From a virus, in the IMG/VR virus record IMGVR_UViG_3300046323_000234: a stretch of DNA of 64,000 nucleotides. One strand, 5' to 3'. Shown piece by piece: positions 3,658-63,826 of the stretch. The position numbers were made by a program, and so were the translations under genes. Position 1 is the stretch's first letter. Every line of letters begins with the position of its first letter. Below the pieces are notes generated by a model that saw only the letters and a list, made by a program, of their open reading frames with translations, ran no database searches and was not told where the DNA came from.

Positions 3658-4333
3658 AAATAAAATTTGTTTTTGTTAAATCAACATCATTTGGTATTAT
3701 ATCCTTTAATTCTTTGTATTTATTTTTTATGTTGGACATTGTTTTTATTCTATGTGCTTCTTCAATTTGCCACATTATTGTTTCAAAGGTTGAGCCAAAT
3801 ACACAAATTAATTCATTCGATAATAAATTTTTATTAATTATAACAAGAATATCTTCAACATATTTACAAGCTAAATGATGATTATTATAACATTTATTAA
3901 CATCATATTCTAATTCTATTTTATTAGATGGTGTATTTAATTTATAAGAATGTGTGATATAATAGTGGTGATTTTTTACAATATTAATACTACTATTATT
4001 ATGATAATTAGGTCGAATTTTTGATAATAACTTTCTTCTATTATAATCCAACCACATATTTTTCCAATCCAATGAATCATGTAACATATTGAATTCATCA
4101 TGTAATAAATCTTTTTTTATTAAAAACATAATATCTTCAATATATAAACATGTTGAATTATATTGGATTGGTAATTTTTCATATCTCCACGTTTCTTTAC
4201 TACTTAGATTTAGAAGAAATTCATTTCTCTTAGCAGCATATGCTATATTATGATAATCATATTCTTCTGGTAATAAATGAATGTTTATATGATTTACAAT
4301 ATCTTCAATATATTTACAAACTAAATTATTCAT
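3638..4333 (-). CDS. Three-unit fusion of the CxYIxEI family
   Basis: VCKYIEDIVNHINIHLLPEE, TCLYIEDIMFLIKKDLLHDE and ACKYVEDILVIINKNLLSNE in one ORF. Confidence 0.75.
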   Translation of the reverse strand: MNNLVCKYIEDIVNHINIHLLPEEYDYHNIAYAAKRNEFLLNLSSKETWRYEKLPIQYNSTCLYIEDIMFLIKKDLLHDEFNMLHDSLDWKNMWLDYNRRKLLSKIRPNYHNNSSINIVKNHHYYITHSYKLNTPSNKIELEYDVNKCYNNHHLACKYVEDILVIINKNLLSNELICVFGSTFETIMWQIEEAHRIKTMSNIKNKYKELKDIIPNDVDLTKTNFIFERDEE

Positions 4334-8911: not shown

Positions 8912-9665
8912 TCACTTCGTCAATTAATTCAAGTTCTTTTGCTTCATCAGCACTTAAATAATAATCACCTTCTTTCAACTTATTTTCCCACCATACTTTA
9001 GATTTATTTGATTTTGAAACCAATAAATCTAAAACACAATTGTTTAATTTCTTCAAATGTTCATAATTGATGGCCATATCTTTAAATGCTCCAAAAAATC
9101 CTCCATTGGTTTGGTGAATCATCATCCATGAGTTCTTGGACATTTTTCTATAATCACATGCAATCAAAATAAACGCACCACCAGACATTATCTGTCCACG
9201 ACCTGTACCATGTATTGGATATGGTTTTTCATTCAACAGATCAACAATTCCAAGTGTTGTATAAGCATCACCACCATAAGATGTTACAACAATATTTAAT
9301 GGTGATATTTTATCTTCTTCATATTCTGGAGATAACTTTTCAATTATTCTTATTTTTGTATCCATTTCTGATAGCGATAAATCATCAATATCAGATGATA
9401 AGTGAATCGTTTTATCACCAACATCAATTCTATGTTCCAATAATTCTTTTAATGCTACACTATATTGATTCCAAAATTCATTAGATTCCATTTCAGATGG
9501 CATCATTTCATCACCTTTTTGATCTTCTGGTGTATATGACATTTGTATTTCAATTGATGTACCTAGATGTTTCTCTAAATCATCTTTTAATTTATTATAT
9601 TTTTTGAAAAATGATTTATCATTCTTCATTTTATCTTGCAATTCCAAATATTTTACCTTATCCAT
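8892..9665 (-). CDS. clpP: ClpP-family protease subunit with N-terminal extension
   Basis: TSYGGD, GQIMSGGA (Ser), MMIHQ (His), GDYYLSADEAKELELIDEV (Asp). Confidence 0.88.
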   Translation of the reverse strand: MDKVKYLELQDKMKNDKSFFKKYNKLKDDLEKHLGTSIEIQMSYTPEDQKGDEMMPSEMESNEFWNQYSVALKELLEHRIDVGDKTIHLSSDIDDLSLSEMDTKIRIIEKLSPEYEEDKISPLNIVVTSYGGDAYTTLGIVDLLNEKPYPIHGTGRGQIMSGGAFILIACDYRKMSKNSWMMIHQTNGGFFGAFKDMAINYEHLKKLNNCVLDLLVSKSNKSKVWWENKLKEGDYYLSADEAKELELIDEVIDYATK

Positions 9666-51730: not shown

Positions 51731-51974
51731 AACAACATATTATAAAAGACTATAAACTAAAAGTCCAACATGATTTTCTCGTACTAGAGGCGGTATTTAT
51801 ATCATCACAAATTCAAAATATTTGGATTCAATATTAAATGAAATTGTTTTTAATAATTTCACAAAAGAAGAATATATTGAGATGTTATCAAATATGCGTG
51901 AAAATCCAAATGAACAGACTTCAAGTTATAAAACGGCTATTAATGGTTTATTCGTTAACGTTTTAAAATTATAA
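51727..51974 (+). pseudogene. Frameshifted CxYIxEI-family member
   Basis: The ATG 51727 frame stops after 36 codons. The -1 frame encodes IYIITNSKYLDSILNEIVFNNFTKEE, homologous to IYIQLSTNSLYLDEILRMILNNLTNEE in the next gene. Confidence 0.6.
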
Positions 51975-51975
51975 T

Positions 51976-52680
51976 ATGGTACTTAGAATTATTAAATGTA
52001 ATAATATATTGTTAAAATCAATATCTGGGATTATTCCTAGTGATATTTTAAGTCCAAATGGTAAATTTATTTATATTCAGTTATCAACTAATAGTTTATA
52101 TTTAGATGAGATTTTACGGATGATTTTAAATAATTTAACCAACGAAGAAAATTCGGATTTGATGGGGTGTATAAAAACATATAAGTTTATTAGCGAAAAT
52201 AATCATTATCAAAAGAGATTACTACATGGTTATTATTGTAAAATAATTGAATTGTAATATATTACCAGATGATAAAAATAGTTAATAATTGCTCAAGTTA
52301 TTTAAATCCAATCCTAAATCAGATTCAAGATTCGTTATTACCAATTGAAATATTTGATTATATTGGTTATGAAATTTATATGAAAATTGGAAAACAGTTG
52401 TTAAATGTAAATGGTGGTAAAATATATTTAGAAACAGCTAGATATTATATAATAAATGATTTGATATATGTTAAATGCGTTTTAAATGAATAGTTTAAAT
52501 GTTGATATTAAATTTAAGTGCTGTAAACATGTTCAAGATATTATTATATTGATAGATAAAAACCTTTTAATAGATGAAAGATCAGATTGGTTTGATGTTA
52601 CCAGAATCTATTATCGTGAAAAATTAGAAAATAAATTCAATGTGATTGGAGATTTAATTTATTTGGAAATAACCGATTAA
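51976..52680 (+). CDS. Three CxYIxEI-family micro-proteins (51976-52257, 52269-52493, 52486-52680)
   Basis: NSLYLDEILRMILNNLTNEE; CSSYLNPILNQIQDSLLPIEI; CCKHVQDIIILIDKNLLIDE. Confidence 0.7.
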
Positions 52681-55763: not shown

Positions 55764-56876
55764 ATGGAAAACGAATTTGAAGACTCATTGGATGAATTAT
55801 TAGATCATTATAATTCAACACATGAAAAAAAGGGATCAGGTGTAATCCCAAGAGAAGAACTAATGAAAAAGTTCTTTGTACCACAAAATGCCACAGAAGA
55901 ATTTAGAGTGGTTAAACAACCATCTAAAGACGGTGATAAACTTTCATACACCGAGACTGCTCACTTTCACGAAATCAAAGTAGGTGAAAAATATAGAAAA
56001 GCTTATTGCTTTAAACACAATGATGACACCAGATGTCCAATGTGTGAAATGGAAGGATTTCTTTTAGGTAAACAATTGAAAAAGAAGTTTGCTGACATGA
56101 CTCCAGAAGAAAAAGAAAAAAATGATAAGATTTATAAATTGTCATTAAAATTCAAAGCAAAAAAATTCTATATCATCAAAGGTCTTGATAGAGGTCAAGA
56201 AAAAGATGGTGTTAAATTCTGGAGATTTAAACACAATTATAAAATGCAAGGTGTTTATGATAAACTGGTAGCAGCAGTTAAATTTTCAAAACAAGAAAAT
56301 AATATCATTTATACTGATGTACTTAATGGTGTCGATCTACAAATTAATGTAGCTGATGATAAAATGCCAAACGGCAAAAAATTCAAAACAGTTACATCAA
56401 TCATGGCCAAATCCAAAACATCTCCTTTAAGTTTGGATGATGCAAAACAAAAAGCATGGTCAACAGACACACTAAAGTGGACAGATGTATTTAAACCATT
56501 GAAAGCACCACATGTGGATGAAATTAAGTTCCTAGAACTTGCAGCTAAAGGTGTAGCACCATTCTATGATGAAAAAGTTAAAAGATGGTATGCACCAGAA
56601 AATCCAGATTTGGAAGCTAAAATGAACGAAAGAACTCAAAATCTTGAAGCCAAAGAAGAAGAATCATCTTTTGGTGGTGATAATGAGTTTGAGGATGAAA
56701 TTAGTCAATTAATGAACGATAAAAAAGCTGCATCAAAAACTGCTGATATTGAATCAATGCCAACATCACAAGTCGCAACCAAAAAAGCATCAACCAAAGA
56801 AGCAGTTAAAGAAACTGTTAAAACTCTGGATGATAATGATGGTCTAGGCTTTGATGATGATGACCTACCGTTCTAA
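55764..56876 (+). CDS. T4 gp32-like single-stranded DNA-binding protein
   Basis: HFHEI...CFKH...CPMCE zinc site, VKFWRF, D..NGVDLQI, acidic tail ending DDDDLPF; upstream of the recombinase. Confidence 0.8.
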   Translation: MENEFEDSLDELLDHYNSTHEKKGSGVIPREELMKKFFVPQNATEEFRVVKQPSKDGDKLSYTETAHFHEIKVGEKYRKAYCFKHNDDTRCPMCEMEGFLLGKQLKKKFADMTPEEKEKNDKIYKLSLKFKAKKFYIIKGLDRGQEKDGVKFWRFKHNYKMQGVYDKLVAAVKFSKQENNIIYTDVLNGVDLQINVADDKMPNGKKFKTVTSIMAKSKTSPLSLDDAKQKAWSTDTLKWTDVFKPLKAPHVDEIKFLELAAKGVAPFYDEKVKRWYAPENPDLEAKMNERTQNLEAKEEESSFGGDNEFEDEISQLMNDKKAASKTADIESMPTSQVATKKASTKEAVKETVKTLDDNDGLGFDDDDLPF

Positions 56877-56969: not shown

Positions 56970-57497
56970 ATGAAAACTTTTAAAAATAAAGATGATTTTA
57001 AAACCAATATAATCAAATATATTTTGATTGGTATTGAAAATAATACTTTTAAAGTAGAATTTGATTATCCAAGTGGTAACCTATTAAATTTATCAAATGA
57101 TTATATATTCAGTTGTAACTTTTATGAATATGATGATCATTCATTTAACATTCAATATACTTTTTCAAATATTGCAGATTGTTTAAATCTAACAAAAGAT
57201 GAATATAATTTAATCATGTATGCTTGCTATGAACATACCTATAGTAACGATATAATGAATGGATTATTGGATTTGATTAAAGAAAATGAAGATAATTCAC
57301 ATTTTGATGATTCATTGAATAATGATGATGACTTATTAAAAATGGTTGATCTTATTGATAATAAATGGAATGAATATAGAAATATTACTAATAATAATGA
57401 TGCTTGGACTTTTAAAGAGTGGTTAAAAAGTAAATACGATAATAGGAATGACGTTTTTGGATTGGATGAAGCAAAGGATGATGACTTGCCCTTTTAA
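56970..57497 (+). CDS. Acidic hypothetical protein with SSB-like tail DDDLPF
   Basis: C-terminus EAKDDDLPF. Confidence 0.65.
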   Translation: MKTFKNKDDFKTNIIKYILIGIENNTFKVEFDYPSGNLLNLSNDYIFSCNFYEYDDHSFNIQYTFSNIADCLNLTKDEYNLIMYACYEHTYSNDIMNGLLDLIKENEDNSHFDDSLNNDDDLLKMVDLIDNKWNEYRNITNNNDAWTFKEWLKSKYDNRNDVFGLDEAKDDDLPF

Positions 57498-57527: not shown

Positions 57528-58586
57528 ATGACAACAGTACGTGGAGCAGTAAAAAAGAAAGAGTTTTCCCTTGGTGATTATAAGAAAACAAAGGGAATTG
57601 ATAAAACAATGAGAAATAAGCCAGATAGGTGGATACCAGCATCAAAGGCATTTAAAGAGATAACTGGCTTACCAGGAGCGATTTATATGTCTGGATCGCA
57701 CTTTATATTCGGCTATGAAAATTCTGGGAAAACGACTTTAATCCTAGAAGCGGCTATATCAGCCCAGAAAATGAATATACTCCCAGTATTCTTAATGACC
57801 GAACAAAAACATAAATGGGATCATGCAAAGACGATGGGTTTTGAAGTTAATGAGATTGTTGATGCAGATGGTGTTGTAAGCTATGATGGATTTTTTTTAT
57901 ATTATGATAGACATAATTTTAGTACAGTTGAAGAACTTGCTAAAGTTATTCATGGTTTAATTGATGACCAAGAAGCTGGTAAATTACCATATGATTTATT
58001 GTTTCTCATTGATAGTTTTGGAAAATTAAACTGCGATAAGGGGGTAAAAAATAAGAACCAATTCAACCCTCAATGGATCAGTTCTTCCATTGCACACGAA
58101 TTTGGAGCTAGTGTAATTCCAAGAATTAATATGAGTATTAGTGAAAAATCTCAATATACAAACACACTTGTTCAAATTATTCAACCTTGGACTGAACTAC
58201 CAGATGTATATGGTGCTTTACCAAAGTTAACGCCAAAGGGTGGTAAATCATTACCACAAGATTCATCAATTGGATATAAATTTGGATCTAATACAAATAG
58301 TGGCACTTCAAGTATGAAGTTGAAAAAGAAGGGTCGTGAAATTGTTTGGGGTACTAGAACCAAAGTTGAGGTTGTGAAAAATCACATCACAATGTTATCG
58401 ACTAAAGGTAAATTAATCGCAACACCACATGGTTTTATTCTTGAAGATGAAGAAAAGGAGTATCTAGCAAAACATGCTGAATATTTTCTAGCACAATTAA
58501 ATACAGATAGTTTTGATGATGTGGAATTTTTTGAAGAAGATAATTCAGATGATGAACCAACCACAATAGAAGATATACTTGATTAA
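57528..58586 (+). CDS. uvsX: RecA/UvsX-like recombinase
   Basis: Walker A GYENSGKTT, TEQK, Walker B FLIDSFG, TPKGG, VVKNH. Confidence 0.88.
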   Translation: MTTVRGAVKKKEFSLGDYKKTKGIDKTMRNKPDRWIPASKAFKEITGLPGAIYMSGSHFIFGYENSGKTTLILEAAISAQKMNILPVFLMTEQKHKWDHAKTMGFEVNEIVDADGVVSYDGFFLYYDRHNFSTVEELAKVIHGLIDDQEAGKLPYDLLFLIDSFGKLNCDKGVKNKNQFNPQWISSSIAHEFGASVIPRINMSISEKSQYTNTLVQIIQPWTELPDVYGALPKLTPKGGKSLPQDSSIGYKFGSNTNSGTSSMKLKKKGREIVWGTRTKVEVVKNHITMLSTKGKLIATPHGFILEDEEKEYLAKHAEYFLAQLNTDSFDDVEFFEEDNSDDEPTTIEDILD

Positions 58587-58590
58587 AATT

Positions 58591-58634
58591 AATATATTGG
58601 ATTTGACCAAACCAATCAAATCCAATATATTTTT
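58591..58634 (+). terminator. Perfect 16-bp hairpin (terminator or translational operator of the endonuclease)
   Basis: aatatattggatttga / tcaaatccaatatatt with a 9-nt loop, 13 nt upstream of ATG 58645. Confidence 0.7.
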
Positions 58635-58644
58635 CACAATTTAA

Positions 58645-59865
58645 ATGGAAGATAATATAATATACAAAATTTATGGATTATATGCTTTAGATGATGAATC
58701 TAAAATAATTAGATATGTTGGATATACAAAAAGAACGATTAAAAAAAGATTATCATCACATATTCACCAATCCAAAGAACGTGATACACATAAAGATCGA
58801 TGGATAAGAAAAAATAATCGTAATATTGATGTTATATTAATTGAAGATAATATAAATACGTATGAATTGGTTTTAGAACGTGAAATATATTGGATTGATT
58901 ATTATAAGAAAATTGGGAATGATTTAGTAAATAGTACTGCTGGTGGTGATGGCACTAAAGGTAGATCACCATCAATGGCTGAACGTGAGCGTTCTAGAAA
59001 GTTAAATTTAGGTAAAAAATTATCTGAAGAACATAAAGCTAAAATAGGTAAGTCACATAAAGGTAAAATACTATCATTAGAACATAAGCAAAAATTAAAA
59101 GATAAAAAACAAAATGTTAGTGATGAAACCAAACAGAAAATGTCGATTATGGCCGTTAGGAGATTTTTGAGAGAGAAAAATATATTTGTTGATGATTTAT
59201 TAAATGATGAAATAGTTCACATAAAACAATTAATAATTGAATATGATAATTTAATAAAACAATTGGTAAAAACCCCAAATGATGATATCGAGTTTTATAA
59301 AAATAAGAATTTTGAAAATAAATTAAATTATGAATTAAAAAAATCCGAAGAGTATAAATTAGGAATTTTAACAAATAATGCAATAGCAATAAAAATAAAA
59401 GAAGATAAATTAAATATAATCAGAGAGAGAGAATTAAAAAAGAATTTTTTAATTCAAGAAAAAATTAATAAACAGCAATTAATTAAAACCGAAAGAGAAT
59501 TAAAGAAACAAAAAGAATATGAATCCAGACAAAAATTAATTGATTCGGGTGATCTATATCAAATGGTTAATTCACTTGGTAAATTGATTTGGGTTAGAAA
59601 AACGTCTGAACAAACCAAACAAAAACTTAGAGAAGCTAATCTTGGTAAGAAATATAGTGAAGAAACAAAAAGAAAACATTCTGAAACCAATTTTAGGATT
59701 AGAAATGGTAAAAAGGGTGTAAAATTAACCGAAGGTGATATTAGAGAAATTAGAAGATTATGCGATAATGAGAAAACAACTAAAGAATTGACAGAAATAT
59801 ATAATATGGATTATTCAACAATCAGAAAAATAGTCCTAAGAAAATTATGGTCAGACATTAAATAA
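58645..59865 (+). CDS. Free-standing GIY-YIG (Seg-like) homing endonuclease with NUMOD3 repeats and C-terminal HTH
   Basis: IYGL...YVGYT...RL..H, EREIYWI, NSTAGGDG; GKKLSEEHKAKIGKSHKGK repeats; KLTEGDIREIR...YSTIRKIV...W. Confidence 0.88.
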   Translation: MEDNIIYKIYGLYALDDESKIIRYVGYTKRTIKKRLSSHIHQSKERDTHKDRWIRKNNRNIDVILIEDNINTYELVLEREIYWIDYYKKIGNDLVNSTAGGDGTKGRSPSMAERERSRKLNLGKKLSEEHKAKIGKSHKGKILSLEHKQKLKDKKQNVSDETKQKMSIMAVRRFLREKNIFVDDLLNDEIVHIKQLIIEYDNLIKQLVKTPNDDIEFYKNKNFENKLNYELKKSEEYKLGILTNNAIAIKIKEDKLNIIRERELKKNFLIQEKINKQQLIKTERELKKQKEYESRQKLIDSGDLYQMVNSLGKLIWVRKTSEQTKQKLREANLGKKYSEETKRKHSETNFRIRNGKKGVKLTEGDIREIRRLCDNEKTTKELTEIYNMDYSTIRKIVLRKLWSDIK

Positions 59866-59866
59866 C

Positions 59867-62862
59867 ATGCAATCAAATATAATTTGGCTCAACACAATAC
59901 ATTATGAATGGTATTCACAGCTTGTTCCAACAAACATTGAATCATGTGATTATGTGAAAGATATTTTAACTGTAATTATAAATGATAACTTTGAATATAA
60001 AGAACTCCAACAATTATCTTATTTTGAAAAGATTAATTATTCTAGGGGGTGTAGATTTATAAATAAATCATTAAATTTCTATATAAATGCAATATAACAT
60101 AGCTTGTAAATATATATTGGATATACATCAATTAATAATTAATAATCTAACAGTTGAAGAAATTGATTTGTTTGAAGATGATTATCAACCCGATGGTAAA
60201 TATAAATATTATCCATTTTTTACAATTTCTAAAATATTGTATAGTGAACATACCTATTATGCTGGAATGCAGACAACATATATATTTAAATTATATGATA
60301 TAGAATGAAGAAGCCTTGTAAATATATATTAGAAATTCATCAATTAATTGTTGATAATCTAATAGATATTGAAATATTTGGATTGGATGAAACACTGGAT
60401 AAATATTATTTATCCTCAAGTGAATTACCATCAATCCATATAAGCAATATTGAATATATATGGAAATTTAATAATGGCATCTATTTAGGTGTTAAACAAA
60501 AATAAGAACATGAAGCCTTGTAAATACATAATAGACATACATTCAAATATCGTTACTAATCATTTCATTGATGAAGAATTTATTGGCATTAAAAATAAAT
60601 ATCATTGGGTAGAAGATCAAATTATTTGCGATTATATTTTTGATTGTGGAATAATATATAGATATAATTGGACAACGAATGAATTAACATTAACAACATA
60701 TGAATAAAGTTTGTAATCACATATTAATAATACACTCTACAATTGTAAAAACATTTTTGCAAGATGATTTTAAGGAATTAAAATGCAACAGTGAAACATA
60801 TTACGATATGAACATAAAATCAATTGTCGTTAATTATTGGTTTAAATCATTGGATATAAGATATAAATATTATTACAACAGCGAATTAGTTTCACTAAGA
60901 TCACCAGATATTATAAAATGATAAACAACATAGAGAAAACAATATATATGAAACATTCTCATAATTCAAATCTAAGATTGCACATGGAATCTGAATGTTG
61001 TTTTTATGTAAATGAAATTTTGCCAAATATATTAAAAAATATTACATTTATGGAATTGTCTGATTTTACATATTATAAAAATCATGCATATAAAAGATAT
61101 ATGAATAAATTAATTTATATTTATTAGTTATGAAACTTAAACCATCTTGTGATTATATATTAGAAATTCATGGTATTATTGTTAAAAATATAACAACAGA
61201 GGAATTATTTGATTTTGTTGACATAATATCACCAATCCTATATAGTCCAAATGATTTTGGATTAATTAAAAAATATTATTTTATGAAAATTGGATTAGTT
61301 TATGATAGAGAATTTGATTATGGTTAAACCATGTAATCATATATTAGAAATACATCAGTTAATTATTAATACATTATTAGATGATGAAATAAATGAATTA
61401 GCGGATGCACATTCACCAATCATAAATAATCCATATTTAAAAATGAATTATTGTTATTTCTTTTTCACAAAGTTTTATATCAAATACAGTAGAGAATTTA
61501 TATTTTAACAATGCAATATCAGGATAGACCATCGCAATATATTAAAGAAATTCATGATATGATTTATGGAAATCTAACCAAAGATGAATTATATGATTGG
61601 ATAAAATTATTAGAAACTGATCCAAGTTATTATGTACTGCCAATGTTTCAAAATGCAATTGATATTTATATTTTAAAATGTGATCATTTAGTATAACCAA
61701 TGAAACCAGCTTGTAAATATATATTAGAAATTCATCAATTGATTGTTGATAATTTATTGATTATTGATGAAGTATTACCACTATTTGATGGTAATTATAT
61801 TGGCGACTATAAATATTTAACATCAATTAGTTCAATCAAATATATAATATTAATTATTCCTTCAAGGAAATATATAATATACCAAACGAATGAATATTAA
61901 ATCAGCTTGTAATTATATATTAGAAATACATCAACAAATTATTGATAATATAACTATTGATGAGGTTAAGGAGATATGTACGATATTGAATGATGATATT
62001 CAGGTTACTAATTTTATATTAAAAGCCTATTACATCGAGATTTATCCAATCCAATATAGATTTAGTTGGAGAACGTTTAACTATAAACAACAATAAAATA
62101 ATGAGTAAATCTAGATTAATATACAAGTATTATTATTATGAGCATGAAACATGTTGTAATTATATAATTAAAATTGTTGATACTATTTTTGATAATATGA
62201 ATTATGCTGAAGTTAATGAACTTGTTCAAGAACGTAGATTATTAATGGATTGGGACATAACAAAAGAGAATGTATTTTTGATTTGTTATTTGCGTTATAT
62301 AGAAACAACATATCCGTTTTAATATGAAAGTTGCTTGTGACTACATATTGGAAATACATCAATTAATTGTCGATAATTTAACATCTGGCGAGATAGTATT
62401 ATTTATGTCAAGATTGGAAAAGATAAATGCTATTCAAAATCGGATATTATTATATCCAATCCAATATAAATATTTTTCACTAATTTCAGTGACAAATCAA
62501 AAAATTAAGATTGAATATGTTAAGACATTAATATATTAAACAAAATGCAATATAACATACCTTGTAAACATATATTAGAAATTCATCAATTAATTGTTGA
62601 TAATTTAACTGGTGATGAAATTTATAAAATAGCTGATGATGGTATTGAAATTCGTTTAGGGCAAAAACATTCATCAATATCATTAACAATAAATAATATA
62701 TATTATATTCCAGATAGTGTGTTTTGTAATTATGCAAAACAATTTAATATTAAAACCATAACAAATGAAGAAGAACAAAACAAAAACATTGCTGGTGGAT
62801 GCCACATATTTATTAAAAAGGTCATTAACTGGTTCAAAAAACACATACGTTGGTGGAGATAA
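59867..62862 (+). repeat. Tandem array of 14 CxYIxEIH micro-genes with ~200-bp period (starts 59867, 60087, 60305, 60510, 60700, 60918, 61130, 61320, 61511, 61700, 61890, 62101, 62324, 62545)
   Basis: Every ORF carries a variant of C-x-[YH]-[IV]-x-[ED]-I-[HL]-x-x-I-x-x-N-[LIF]-x-x-x-E. A 44-bp DNA core is nearly identical at 60315, 61710 and 62561. Confidence 0.92.
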
Positions 62863-63826
62863 TAATGTTGGTATTTATACATTCATAACTACATTAAGAA
62901 AATTAATTAATGAAACCAAAGTAAATAGGGTTGTATTATGTTGGGATGGTGAGAATTCTGGGAAGCGCAGATATTTGATTTCTAGCGACTACAAAGCCAA
63001 TCGAAAGGGAAAGAGTTGGTATAATAAAATTCAGTTAACTGAGGCTGAAATTAAGTACCTAGAAAGGGATAAACAATCAGAGCTATATCAAAAAGTTAGA
63101 ATACAAAACTATTGTGAGGAATTATTCATTAGACAAGTTGAGATTGACGAAGTTGAAGCTGATGATATGATTGCACAATACGTAATAAATTTTTCAGAGA
63201 TAGAAGATATTATTGTATACACAAATGATAAAGATTATATTCAATTATTAGATTATAACATATCTGTATATCTTAATTTTATTGGTTTAATAATTGATAA
63301 AAATGATTTCTTCATGCATTTTCCATATCATTATAAAAATTCATTAACCATTAAAATAATGTGTGGTGATAGTGGTGATAATGTAAAGGGAATTAAAGGA
63401 TTTGCTGAACCAACATTCATGTCTTTATTTCCAGATGCAAAAGATAAGCATTTAATGGTAAAGGATGTTATTAGATTGGCCAAACAAATCCAAAAAGATA
63501 GAATTGATAATAAGCAAAAACCATTAAAGGTTATTGAGAATATAATAAACGGAAAAGATATTTATATTTTAAATAAACAATTGGTGGATCTATCATCACC
63601 ATTATTAAATGAAGATGAGAAGAATATTATATTAGATTTAGCATTGCCATTAGATTCTGAAAATAGAGGTTCAAAAAATTTAATTAGATTAATGAATGAA
63701 GATAAATTTTTATCAAATTACAATGGAAATAGATCTGATTTCGCTTCATATGTTGAGCCATTTTATATTATAATCTCAAGTGAGAAAAAATTATTTGAAG
63801 AATATTCAAAAAATATAAAATATTAA
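62765..63826 (+). CDS. 5'-3' exonuclease/flap endonuclease (T4 RNase H or PolI N-terminal-like)
   Basis: LLVDA, CWDG, YKANR, EVEADDMIA, TNDKDYIQL, CGDSGDNVKGIKG. Confidence 0.93.
   Translation: MKKNKTKTLLVDATYLLKRSLTGSKNTYVGGDNNVGIYTFITTLRKLINETKVNRVVLCWDGENSGKRRYLISSDYKANRKGKSWYNKIQLTEAEIKYLERDKQSELYQKVRIQNYCEELFIRQVEIDEVEADDMIAQYVINFSEIEDIIVYTNDKDYIQLLDYNISVYLNFIGLIIDKNDFFMHFPYHYKNSLTIKIMCGDSGDNVKGIKGFAEPTFMSLFPDAKDKHLMVKDVIRLAKQIQKDRIDNKQKPLKVIENIINGKDIYILNKQLVDLSSPLLNEDEKNIILDLALPLDSENRGSKNLIRLMNEDKFLSNYNGNRSDFASYVEPFYIIISSEKKLFEEYSKNIKY

Follow-up and report, generated by a model that had tools for sequence, protein, structure and literature searches.

A repeated 44-bp core in a tandem array of phage mini-genes is coding DNA and may be homogenised by gene conversion

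Results and discussion

The array and its repeated core

The virus record IMGVR_UViG_3300046323_000234 was analysed over a stretch of 64,000 nt (the window), which lies on a contig of 171,483 nt from a large uncultured phage with an AT-rich genome (G+C ~26%). The window carries large-myovirus genes. Between the genes of a GIY-YIG homing endonuclease and an RNase H there is an array of fourteen paralogous mini-genes, separated by gaps of 1-5 nt or overlapping by a few bases (Table 1). A first-pass annotation of this sequence had drawn attention to a 44-bp DNA core that is nearly identical in the non-adjacent units 3, 10 and 14 (the triad) and had proposed that it may serve as a recombination or gene-conversion handle by which the downstream parts of the genes, the tails, are swapped, gained or lost. 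The core lies in coding DNA and specifies the constant, amphipathic N-terminal helix by which this micro-protein family is defined, and its synonymous sites agree within the triad beyond what codon bias alone provides.

Table 1. Coordinates of the mini-gene units, the three core copies and the flanking genes in the window (aa, amino acids; ORF, open reading frame)
Feature	Position	Strand	Remarks
gp32-like SSB	55764-56876
Acidic 175-aa ORF	56970-57497
RecA/UvsX-like recombinase	57528-58586		Pfam RecA
GIY-YIG/NUMOD3 homing endonuclease	58645-59865		Free-standing; Pfam
Array of 14 paralogous mini-genes	59867-62862	+	61-105 aa, abutting or overlapping; from ORF list, translations, alignment and a profile search recovering 14/14
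Unit 1	59867-60097	+	Divergent; motif internal, after a 26-aa extension
Unit 2	60087-60308	+	IHQLI-type core; shares with unit 14 the first 16 nt and 80% of the first 98 nt
Unit 3	60305-60505	+	IHQLI-type core, triad member; best tail partner is the neighbouring unit 4
44-bp core, reference copy (unit 3)	60315-60358	+	End of a Pro codon, then C-K-Y-I-L-E-I-H-Q-L-I-V-D-N
Unit 4	60510-60707	+	IHS-type core; tail closest to that of unit 10
Unit 5	60700-60921	+	IHS-type divergent core
Unit 6	60918-61127	+	Divergent; motif internal
Unit 7	61130-61327	+	Non-IHQLI core; tail clearly homologous to unit 8
Unit 8	61320-61508	+	IHQLI-type core with unit-7-like tail; candidate chimera (MaxChi P=0.003)
Unit 9	61511-61696	+	Divergent core, Ser replaces Cys
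Unit 10	61700-61900	+	IHQLI-type core, triad member, unit-4-like tail; candidate chimera (MaxChi P=0.0035)
44-bp core, unit 10 copy	61710-61753	+	One synonymous Leu difference (TTA/TTG), breaking the dyad
Unit 11	61890-62096	+	IHQ-type core; 16-nt tail patch in common with unit 13
Unit 12	62101-62322	+	Divergent; motif internal
Unit 13	62324-62539	+	Core peptide with Asp for Lys; four synonymous differences from the triad
Unit 14	62545-62862	+	IHQLI-type core, triad member; frame enters the RNase H gene by 98 nt
44-bp core, unit 14 copy	62561-62604	+	One non-synonymous difference (Tyr to His)
5'-3' exonuclease/RNase H	62765-63826		Pfam

All fourteen units are full-length homologues, the match to a hidden Markov model (HMM) of the family running from end to end, and their alignment gives a common layout with a constant N-terminal motif, a variable middle part and a weakly conserved C-terminal [I/L]-x-Y...aromatic motif. 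Calling the flanks of the core unrelated was thus an overstatement for the family, even if no DNA similarity can indeed be detected between the tails of units 3, 10 and 14. The core starts 10-16 nt into each ORF. The 44-mer itself is found exactly in unit 3 and with one mismatch each in units 10 and 14, and 100 dinucleotide shuffles gave no match. Weaker copies are present in at least nine units, and seven units (2, 3, 8, 10, 11, 13 and 14) have a core of the IHQLI type. Two 16-mers described as duplicated each occur exactly twice, the first at 60086 and 62544, one base ahead of the ATG codons at 60087 and 62545, and the second at 62043 and 62453 within units 11 and 13. The 10-bp dyad noted in the core occurs three times in the window (units 3, 13 and 14) against 0.71 expected, but the unit 10 copy is mismatched within the dyad and is not palindromic. 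This dyad is a by-product of the Q-L-I-V codons.

The AlphaFold model of the unit 13 protein consists of an N-terminal helix at residues 2-17 (predicted local distance difference test, pLDDT, ~90), a second helix and a beta hairpin, with a mean pLDDT of 74. The model of unit 10, of low confidence (pLDDT 57), likewise begins with an N-terminal helix and continues with beta strands. Foldseek searches of the unit models against PDB and BFVD and a wide VIA-align search gave no fold match (best E 0.2, best Z 3.8). A homodimer prediction for unit 13 scored 0.02, a value that counts neither for nor against a dimer. A Cys-x6-His metal site was considered and dropped on the reasoning that helix residues i and i+7 are too distant to chelate one metal.

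About 25 recognisable copies of the family, some of them weak matches, are present in three clusters of this one 171-kb genome, fourteen of them in the array. A second, degenerate cluster lies at window positions 51822-52680 and comprises four small ORFs, three of which have weak HMM matches (E 0.01-0.1). It sits upstream of a 60-aa gene whose homologue in the closest relative found, L011, follows ~11 small genes with similar degenerate motifs. The third cluster is at positions 141-4576 of L004, which is placed on the same 171,483-nt contig, outside the window, because its proteins have that contig as their longest, and has four clear and three weaker members. It is interrupted by a 229-aa ORF, for which Pfam gives no match, and adjoins genes of the RlaP-like nucleotidyltransferase, AAA and DUF2201 types. 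L004 also encodes three ~100-aa proteins with a distantly similar N-terminal Cys-helix motif.

Synonymous identity beyond the peptide

Codon usage was taken from 41 long ORFs of the window and is strongly A/T-ending. With this usage, two units that encode the same 15-residue peptide are expected to have 9.2 codons in common, which amounts to ~39/45 nt. The bulk of the 44-bp match is trivial in this sense, being an identical peptide in a strongly biased code. An explanation that dispenses with recombination can be built on this constraint. It holds that units 3, 10 and 14 have retained an ancestral core through peptide constraint, AT-biased codons and a site-specific codon preference at the 5′ end, with tails that have diverged by fast diversifying selection and indels. 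We think this unlikely. Besides the ~39/45 that codon bias alone predicts, it can call on the P=0.025-0.14 for one pair at 43/45 and on the fact that each triad member is 0-1 synonymous step from the family consensus.

The identities observed within the triad are higher. For units 3 and 10, 13 of the 15 codons for identical amino acids are themselves identical against 9.2 expected (P=0.024), and for the pairs 3-14 and 10-14 the figure is 13/14 against 8.3 expected (P=0.0046 in both cases). We simulated all 14 cores in 3000 runs with the peptides fixed and the codons random. A single pair with at least 43/45 identical positions appeared in 2.5% of the runs, and the triad or three such pairs in none (0/3000). 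When all pairs are taken together, there are 519 identical codons where 428 ± 25 would be expected (P ~3e-4). A more conservative null, in which position-specific codon frequencies were taken from the family itself with the triad included, still gave P=0.0015 for the triad, with P=0.14 for a single pair. Third-position identity within the triad is 0.96 in the core and 0.49-0.57 just downstream, against a composition expectation of 0.36. Bias towards AT-rich codons, which the first-pass annotation had named as part of what would undo its reading, thus falls short of accounting for the triad, and the result under position-specific frequencies also speaks against an ancestral core retained without recombination.

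Selection at the protein level, which had likewise been proposed, is borne out. Unit 13 has a near-identical core peptide, in which Asp replaces Lys at +1, and shows four synonymous differences, and the copies in the L004 cluster encode nearly the same peptide with many synonymous changes, their 6/10 to 8/11 codons in common with the triad being at the level given by codon bias. Because unit 13 and the L004 copies use different codons for the same peptide, the core is both coding and protein-selected.

A signal at the nucleotide level might also constrain synonymous sites, for example a promoter inside the gene, an operator bound by a phage regulator, or an RNA structure that governs how the coupled genes are translated. 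We consider this very improbable. A weak sigma-70-like match (9/12, to a consensus that may not be that of the host) is present within the cores of units 3, 10, 11, 13 and 14, but the region has about as many promoter-like matches as chance would give (64, with 61.9 ± 8.6 expected). Unit 3 contains a 29-nt imperfect palindrome centred on the dyad, which is not common to units 10 or 14. The folds of five cores differ from each other (z -1.6 to +1.1), and units that encode the same peptide differ by 4-5 synonymous changes, the L004 copies by more. With one of three copies broken and no consistent fold, a role for the dyad finds no backing. A further point in favour of a nucleotide signal is the Ile codon at +3 after the Cys (e.g. 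60326-60328). It is ATA in 11/12 units and in 6/7 of the L004 and L011 copies having Ile there, a preference across clusters and phages that is equally what the recombination-free explanation would ascribe to site-specific codon constraint. ATA represents only 38% of the Ile codons genome-wide, and the synonymous sites beside +3 are scrambled.

Apparently discordant histories of core and tails

The tails of the triad are not more alike than chance would have them, neither as DNA (z 0-1.9 relative to codon-shuffled tails) nor as protein (z -0.6 to 1.5). An internal clock is provided by two adjacent L004 copies, at 3937 and 4152, which have five synonymous differences in their first 54 nt and tails that are 73% identical (z=18). 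Because the triad cores differ less than this pair, their tails would be expected to be >75% identical if core and tail had a common history, and what is observed is background. This is difficult to reconcile with simple retention of an ancestral core. Moreover, core synonymous sites in L004 evolve about as fast as the tails (5 changes/54 nt against 27% tail divergence), so that synonymous sites at the 5′ end are not generally frozen.

Across the array, tail similarity follows proximity (Mantel r=0.19, P=0.03; pairs 3-4, 4-5, 6-7, 7-8 and 8-9), and core identity does not (r=-0.02). The tails of the IHQLI-type units are no closer to one another than to those of other units (P=0.30), and for 4/7 of them the best tail partner is a unit without the IHQLI core, a pairing with neighbours that again argues against retention of the core without recombination. 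The tails of units 7 and 8 are clearly homologous (protein z 5.6), and their cores are just 32/45 identical. In triplet MaxChi tests, the left part of unit 10 resembles unit 3 and its right part unit 4 (P=0.0035), and the left part of unit 8 resembles unit 14 and its right part unit 7 (P=0.003). Taken together, the Mantel and group tests and the two MaxChi triplets point to discordant histories of core and tails, with the reservation that the tail alignments are weak. The tails seem to be old, to have arisen by tandem duplication and to have stayed in place, and the core seems to be the part that has been homogenised. This is the reverse of the proposed swapping of tails, which we do not uphold: tail similarity follows the neighbourhood in the array, and it is the core that looks moved.

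Confinement of conversion or recombination to the core offers the best explanation, since there is an excess of synonymous identity together with the apparent discordance of core and tail. We therefore favour, with somewhat better than even confidence, a combination of purifying selection on the helix with short-tract gene conversion of the core between tails that have diverged in place. Both conversion as the mechanism and its direction are what we infer from these comparisons. In a first layer, purifying selection would keep the peptide, and the A/T-ending codons would then yield ~39/45 nt between units with the same peptide. In a second layer, the cores of units 3, 10 and 14 would be homogenised by short-tract conversion or template switching between misaligned units during the recombination-dependent replication of the phage, with tracts confined to the ~45-55 bp where homology exists. 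A weaker homogenisation might extend across all seven IHQLI-type units. The hypervariable tails would retain the older history of neighbour-to-neighbour tandem duplication. In this scheme the core would be a passive homology patch, sustained by protein constraint, reinforced by conversion, and a natural site for unequal crossovers that change copy number.

Several points weigh against this interpretation. The excess identity amounts to only ~4 nt for each pair, one pair alone at 43/45 would not be remarkable (P=0.025; P=0.14 with the conservative null), and the triad statistic was picked after the data had been seen. Recombination-breakpoint analysis, the check proposed in the first-pass annotation, gave a divided result: two of 12 MaxChi triplets, those of units 10 and 8, beat the Bonferroni threshold, and the ten others are not significant after correction. 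The method can also be misled by lineage-specific constraint. The tail alignments are weak and the neighbour signal is noisy. The preference for ATA at Ile +3 is site-specific, so something besides conversion also acts on synonymous sites. Finally, no rearranged array was found in four independent assemblies, and eight of nine unit proteins looked up are single-member clusters at 90% identity in a collection of 15 billion proteins, with no chimeric forms on record; the idea of ongoing rearrangement thus finds no echo in these data. The ninth protein looked up (unit 8, short start) is not in that collection.

The locus in relatives and in other samples

The block of 458-aa ORF, SSB, recombinase, RNase H, helicase and RNR genes is syntenic in relatives, and the interval between recombinase and RNase H varies. 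It contains nothing in L013 and L017, an unrelated 67-aa gene and a metallophosphatase gene in L015 and L016, five small genes in L011 (RNase H 75% identical), the last two being clear IHS-type members of the family, and the homing endonuclease and fourteen units in the present phage. This interval is a hyperplastic spot. L011 is the only relative with the family and has no IHQLI-type units, the IHQLI-type core being found in this genome only. The relatives with differing gene number are at most 75% identical in amino acid sequence, too distant for breakpoint mapping, and searches of viral and metagenome contigs gave no genome closer than L011.

The unit proteins were found on other contigs from four samples. 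Three of these contigs, from three samples, were read as DNA and match the window at 100% identity throughout the array. Two short contigs from other samples correspond to parts of the window: L002 equals window positions 60329-61739, starting in the core of unit 3 and ending in that of unit 10, and L003 equals 60343-61277, also starting in the unit 3 core. Their ends were considered as biological junctions and rejected, the identical run between the unit 3 and unit 10 cores being exactly 31 nt. They are expected breaks of the assembly graph because this run is assumed to equal the k-mer size of the de Bruijn graph. Conversely, an assembly artefact behind the core identity was rejected, since reads are longer than the repeat and the four assemblies give the same sequence at every base.

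These data bear on the stronger claim that the core is a selected recombination handle, the coding-region counterpart of the promoter-early stem-loop (PeSL) cassettes of T4-type phages, at which the recombinase excises, duplicates and re-joins modules and so diversifies a repertoire. The identical patch of 31-44 nt is about the size of homology usable by T4-type recombination, for which a requirement of under 50 bp is cited in PMC2839356. The hyperplasticity of the recombinase-RNase H locus, the candidate chimeric units 8 and 10, and a homing endonuclease able to make double-strand breaks at the edge of the array would all fit. On the other side, it is the peptide and not the DNA that the L004 cluster of this genome conserves, neither an intergenic element nor a promoter or stem-loop was detected, one core copy in three lacks an intact dyad, the contigs and protein clusters checked contained neither variant arrays nor chimeric proteins, and the tails look resident rather than swapped. 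The suggested functional link to the adjacent UvsX, SSB and exonuclease genes is not supported either: these recombination genes lie next to the array owing to conserved synteny, because relatives devoid of the array carry the same block. We judge a selected handle to be improbable. It is equally doubtful that the constant-helix patch doubles as homology for the RecA-like recombinase of the phage, with breaks made by the homing endonuclease perhaps stimulating the duplication, deletion and re-joining of modules.

The core is thus most likely not a dedicated recombination site or shuffling device. As a locus of recombination or gene conversion in a looser sense it keeps some standing, given its excess of synonymous identity, the apparent discordance of core and tails and a copy number that varies among relatives, with 0, 5 or 14 genes at the locus.

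An orphan micro-protein family

The 8-kb region had no megablast match among 50,697 phage records, Pfam and PHROGs scans of ten units gave none below E=0.04, and a word-indexed protein search together with a full HMM search of 1.84 billion representative proteins returned nothing beyond the genome's own copies. A search for related loci among viral and metagenome contigs found none. A degenerate DNA pattern for the core peptide had four matches in IMG/VR, all of them out of frame and rejected as chance. The mini-genes encode phage-specific micro-proteins new to the databases, a family now documented with its ~25 recognisable copies, absent from Pfam and PHROGs and present elsewhere in one related phage only. 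We judge the family to be a more intriguing object than the core repeat.

At the distal end of the array, unit 14 overlaps the RNase H gene over 98 nt (62765-62862) and has 105 aa as compared with ~70 aa in other units. In L011 the overlap between the last unit and RNase H is just 4 nt. The extension of unit 14 looks like the result of stop codon loss.

Comparison with known systems

By analogy, the nearest described phage phenomenon is modular shuffling mediated by PeSL cassettes (PMC2839356, PMC4122927). These are intergenic elements with a sigma-70 promoter and a terminator hairpin that flank unrelated ORFans, and mini-circles have been shown experimentally (PMC2839356, PMC4122927). The likeness lies in repeated patches of ~50 bp among arrays of small ORFans in the replication and recombination part of a large myovirus genome, in a gene content of the locus that differs between relatives, and in the proposal, made in both cases, of general phage homologous recombination acting on short homology. 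However, the repeat described here is inside the coding sequence of abutting or overlapping paralogues and not intergenic, there is no shared stem-loop (five cores have different folds), and there is no terminator-like site inside the array. As to the promoter feature, the core has the 9/12 sigma-70 match, to a consensus that may not be the host's, in a region with 64 matches where 61.9 are expected. If the array does rearrange at a measurable frequency, the idea of shuffling on homology patches would extend from regulatory to coding DNA. Should the core really act as a recombinase handle, a phage population might possess a fast-changing set of micro-proteins in which a single docking helix is combined with many tails that bind targets.

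Rows of small promoter-less genes in varying number also recall integron attC cassettes. But attC sites lie between genes and fold into hairpins that an integrase cuts, and the array has no intergenic space, no conserved hairpin and no shared short-range inverted repeat.

A parallel to the process is concerted evolution by gene conversion in multigene families, as in the conserved blocks of Neisseria pilE/pilS, the Borrelia vls cassettes and Plasmodium var. There too a constant segment alike at synonymous sites stands beside hypervariable segments. Conversion tracts in those families end where homology ends, and the trees of the two parts are discordant, as would be the case here under conversion. 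Systems of this type vary an antigen by means of silent donor cassettes and a single expression site, while here 14/14 units appear to be intact genes with coupled translation and there is no indication of programmed switching. The array consists of tandem paralogues of common descent and has a segment with synonymous identity above both the codon-bias expectation and its flanks. It fits tandem multigene families with a conserved segment evolving in concert, the gene family being new and the process familiar. It could illustrate how concerted evolution proceeds in a hyperplastic locus of a phage, in a case where the trivial part of a repeat (an identical peptide in an AT-biased code) is separated from the real part (a small, significant synonymous excess with apparently discordant core and tails).

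Gene neighbourhood

Between 54 and 64 kb the window carries the 458-aa ORF, followed by the gp32-like SSB gene and onward as listed in Table 1. The only cultured relatives by recombinase protein are the Flavobacterium 'immuto' phages, with 45% amino acid identity. The homing endonuclease gene is probably a recent mobile insertion, since it is absent from L011 and from more distant relatives. The gp32-like SSB and the unrelated acidic 175-aa ORF both have C-termini with a bacterial-SSB-like D-D-D-L-P-F tail; the ORF at the place of the latter in L011, of 111 aa, lacks this tail. A perfect 16-bp inverted repeat with a 9-nt loop (58591-58631) directly follows the recombinase stop codon and probably acts as terminator of the recombinase transcription unit. 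At the same place after the recombinase gene, L011 has a hairpin followed by a T-run (8931-8980). The inverted repeat in the window is overlapped by sigma-70-like promoter matches.

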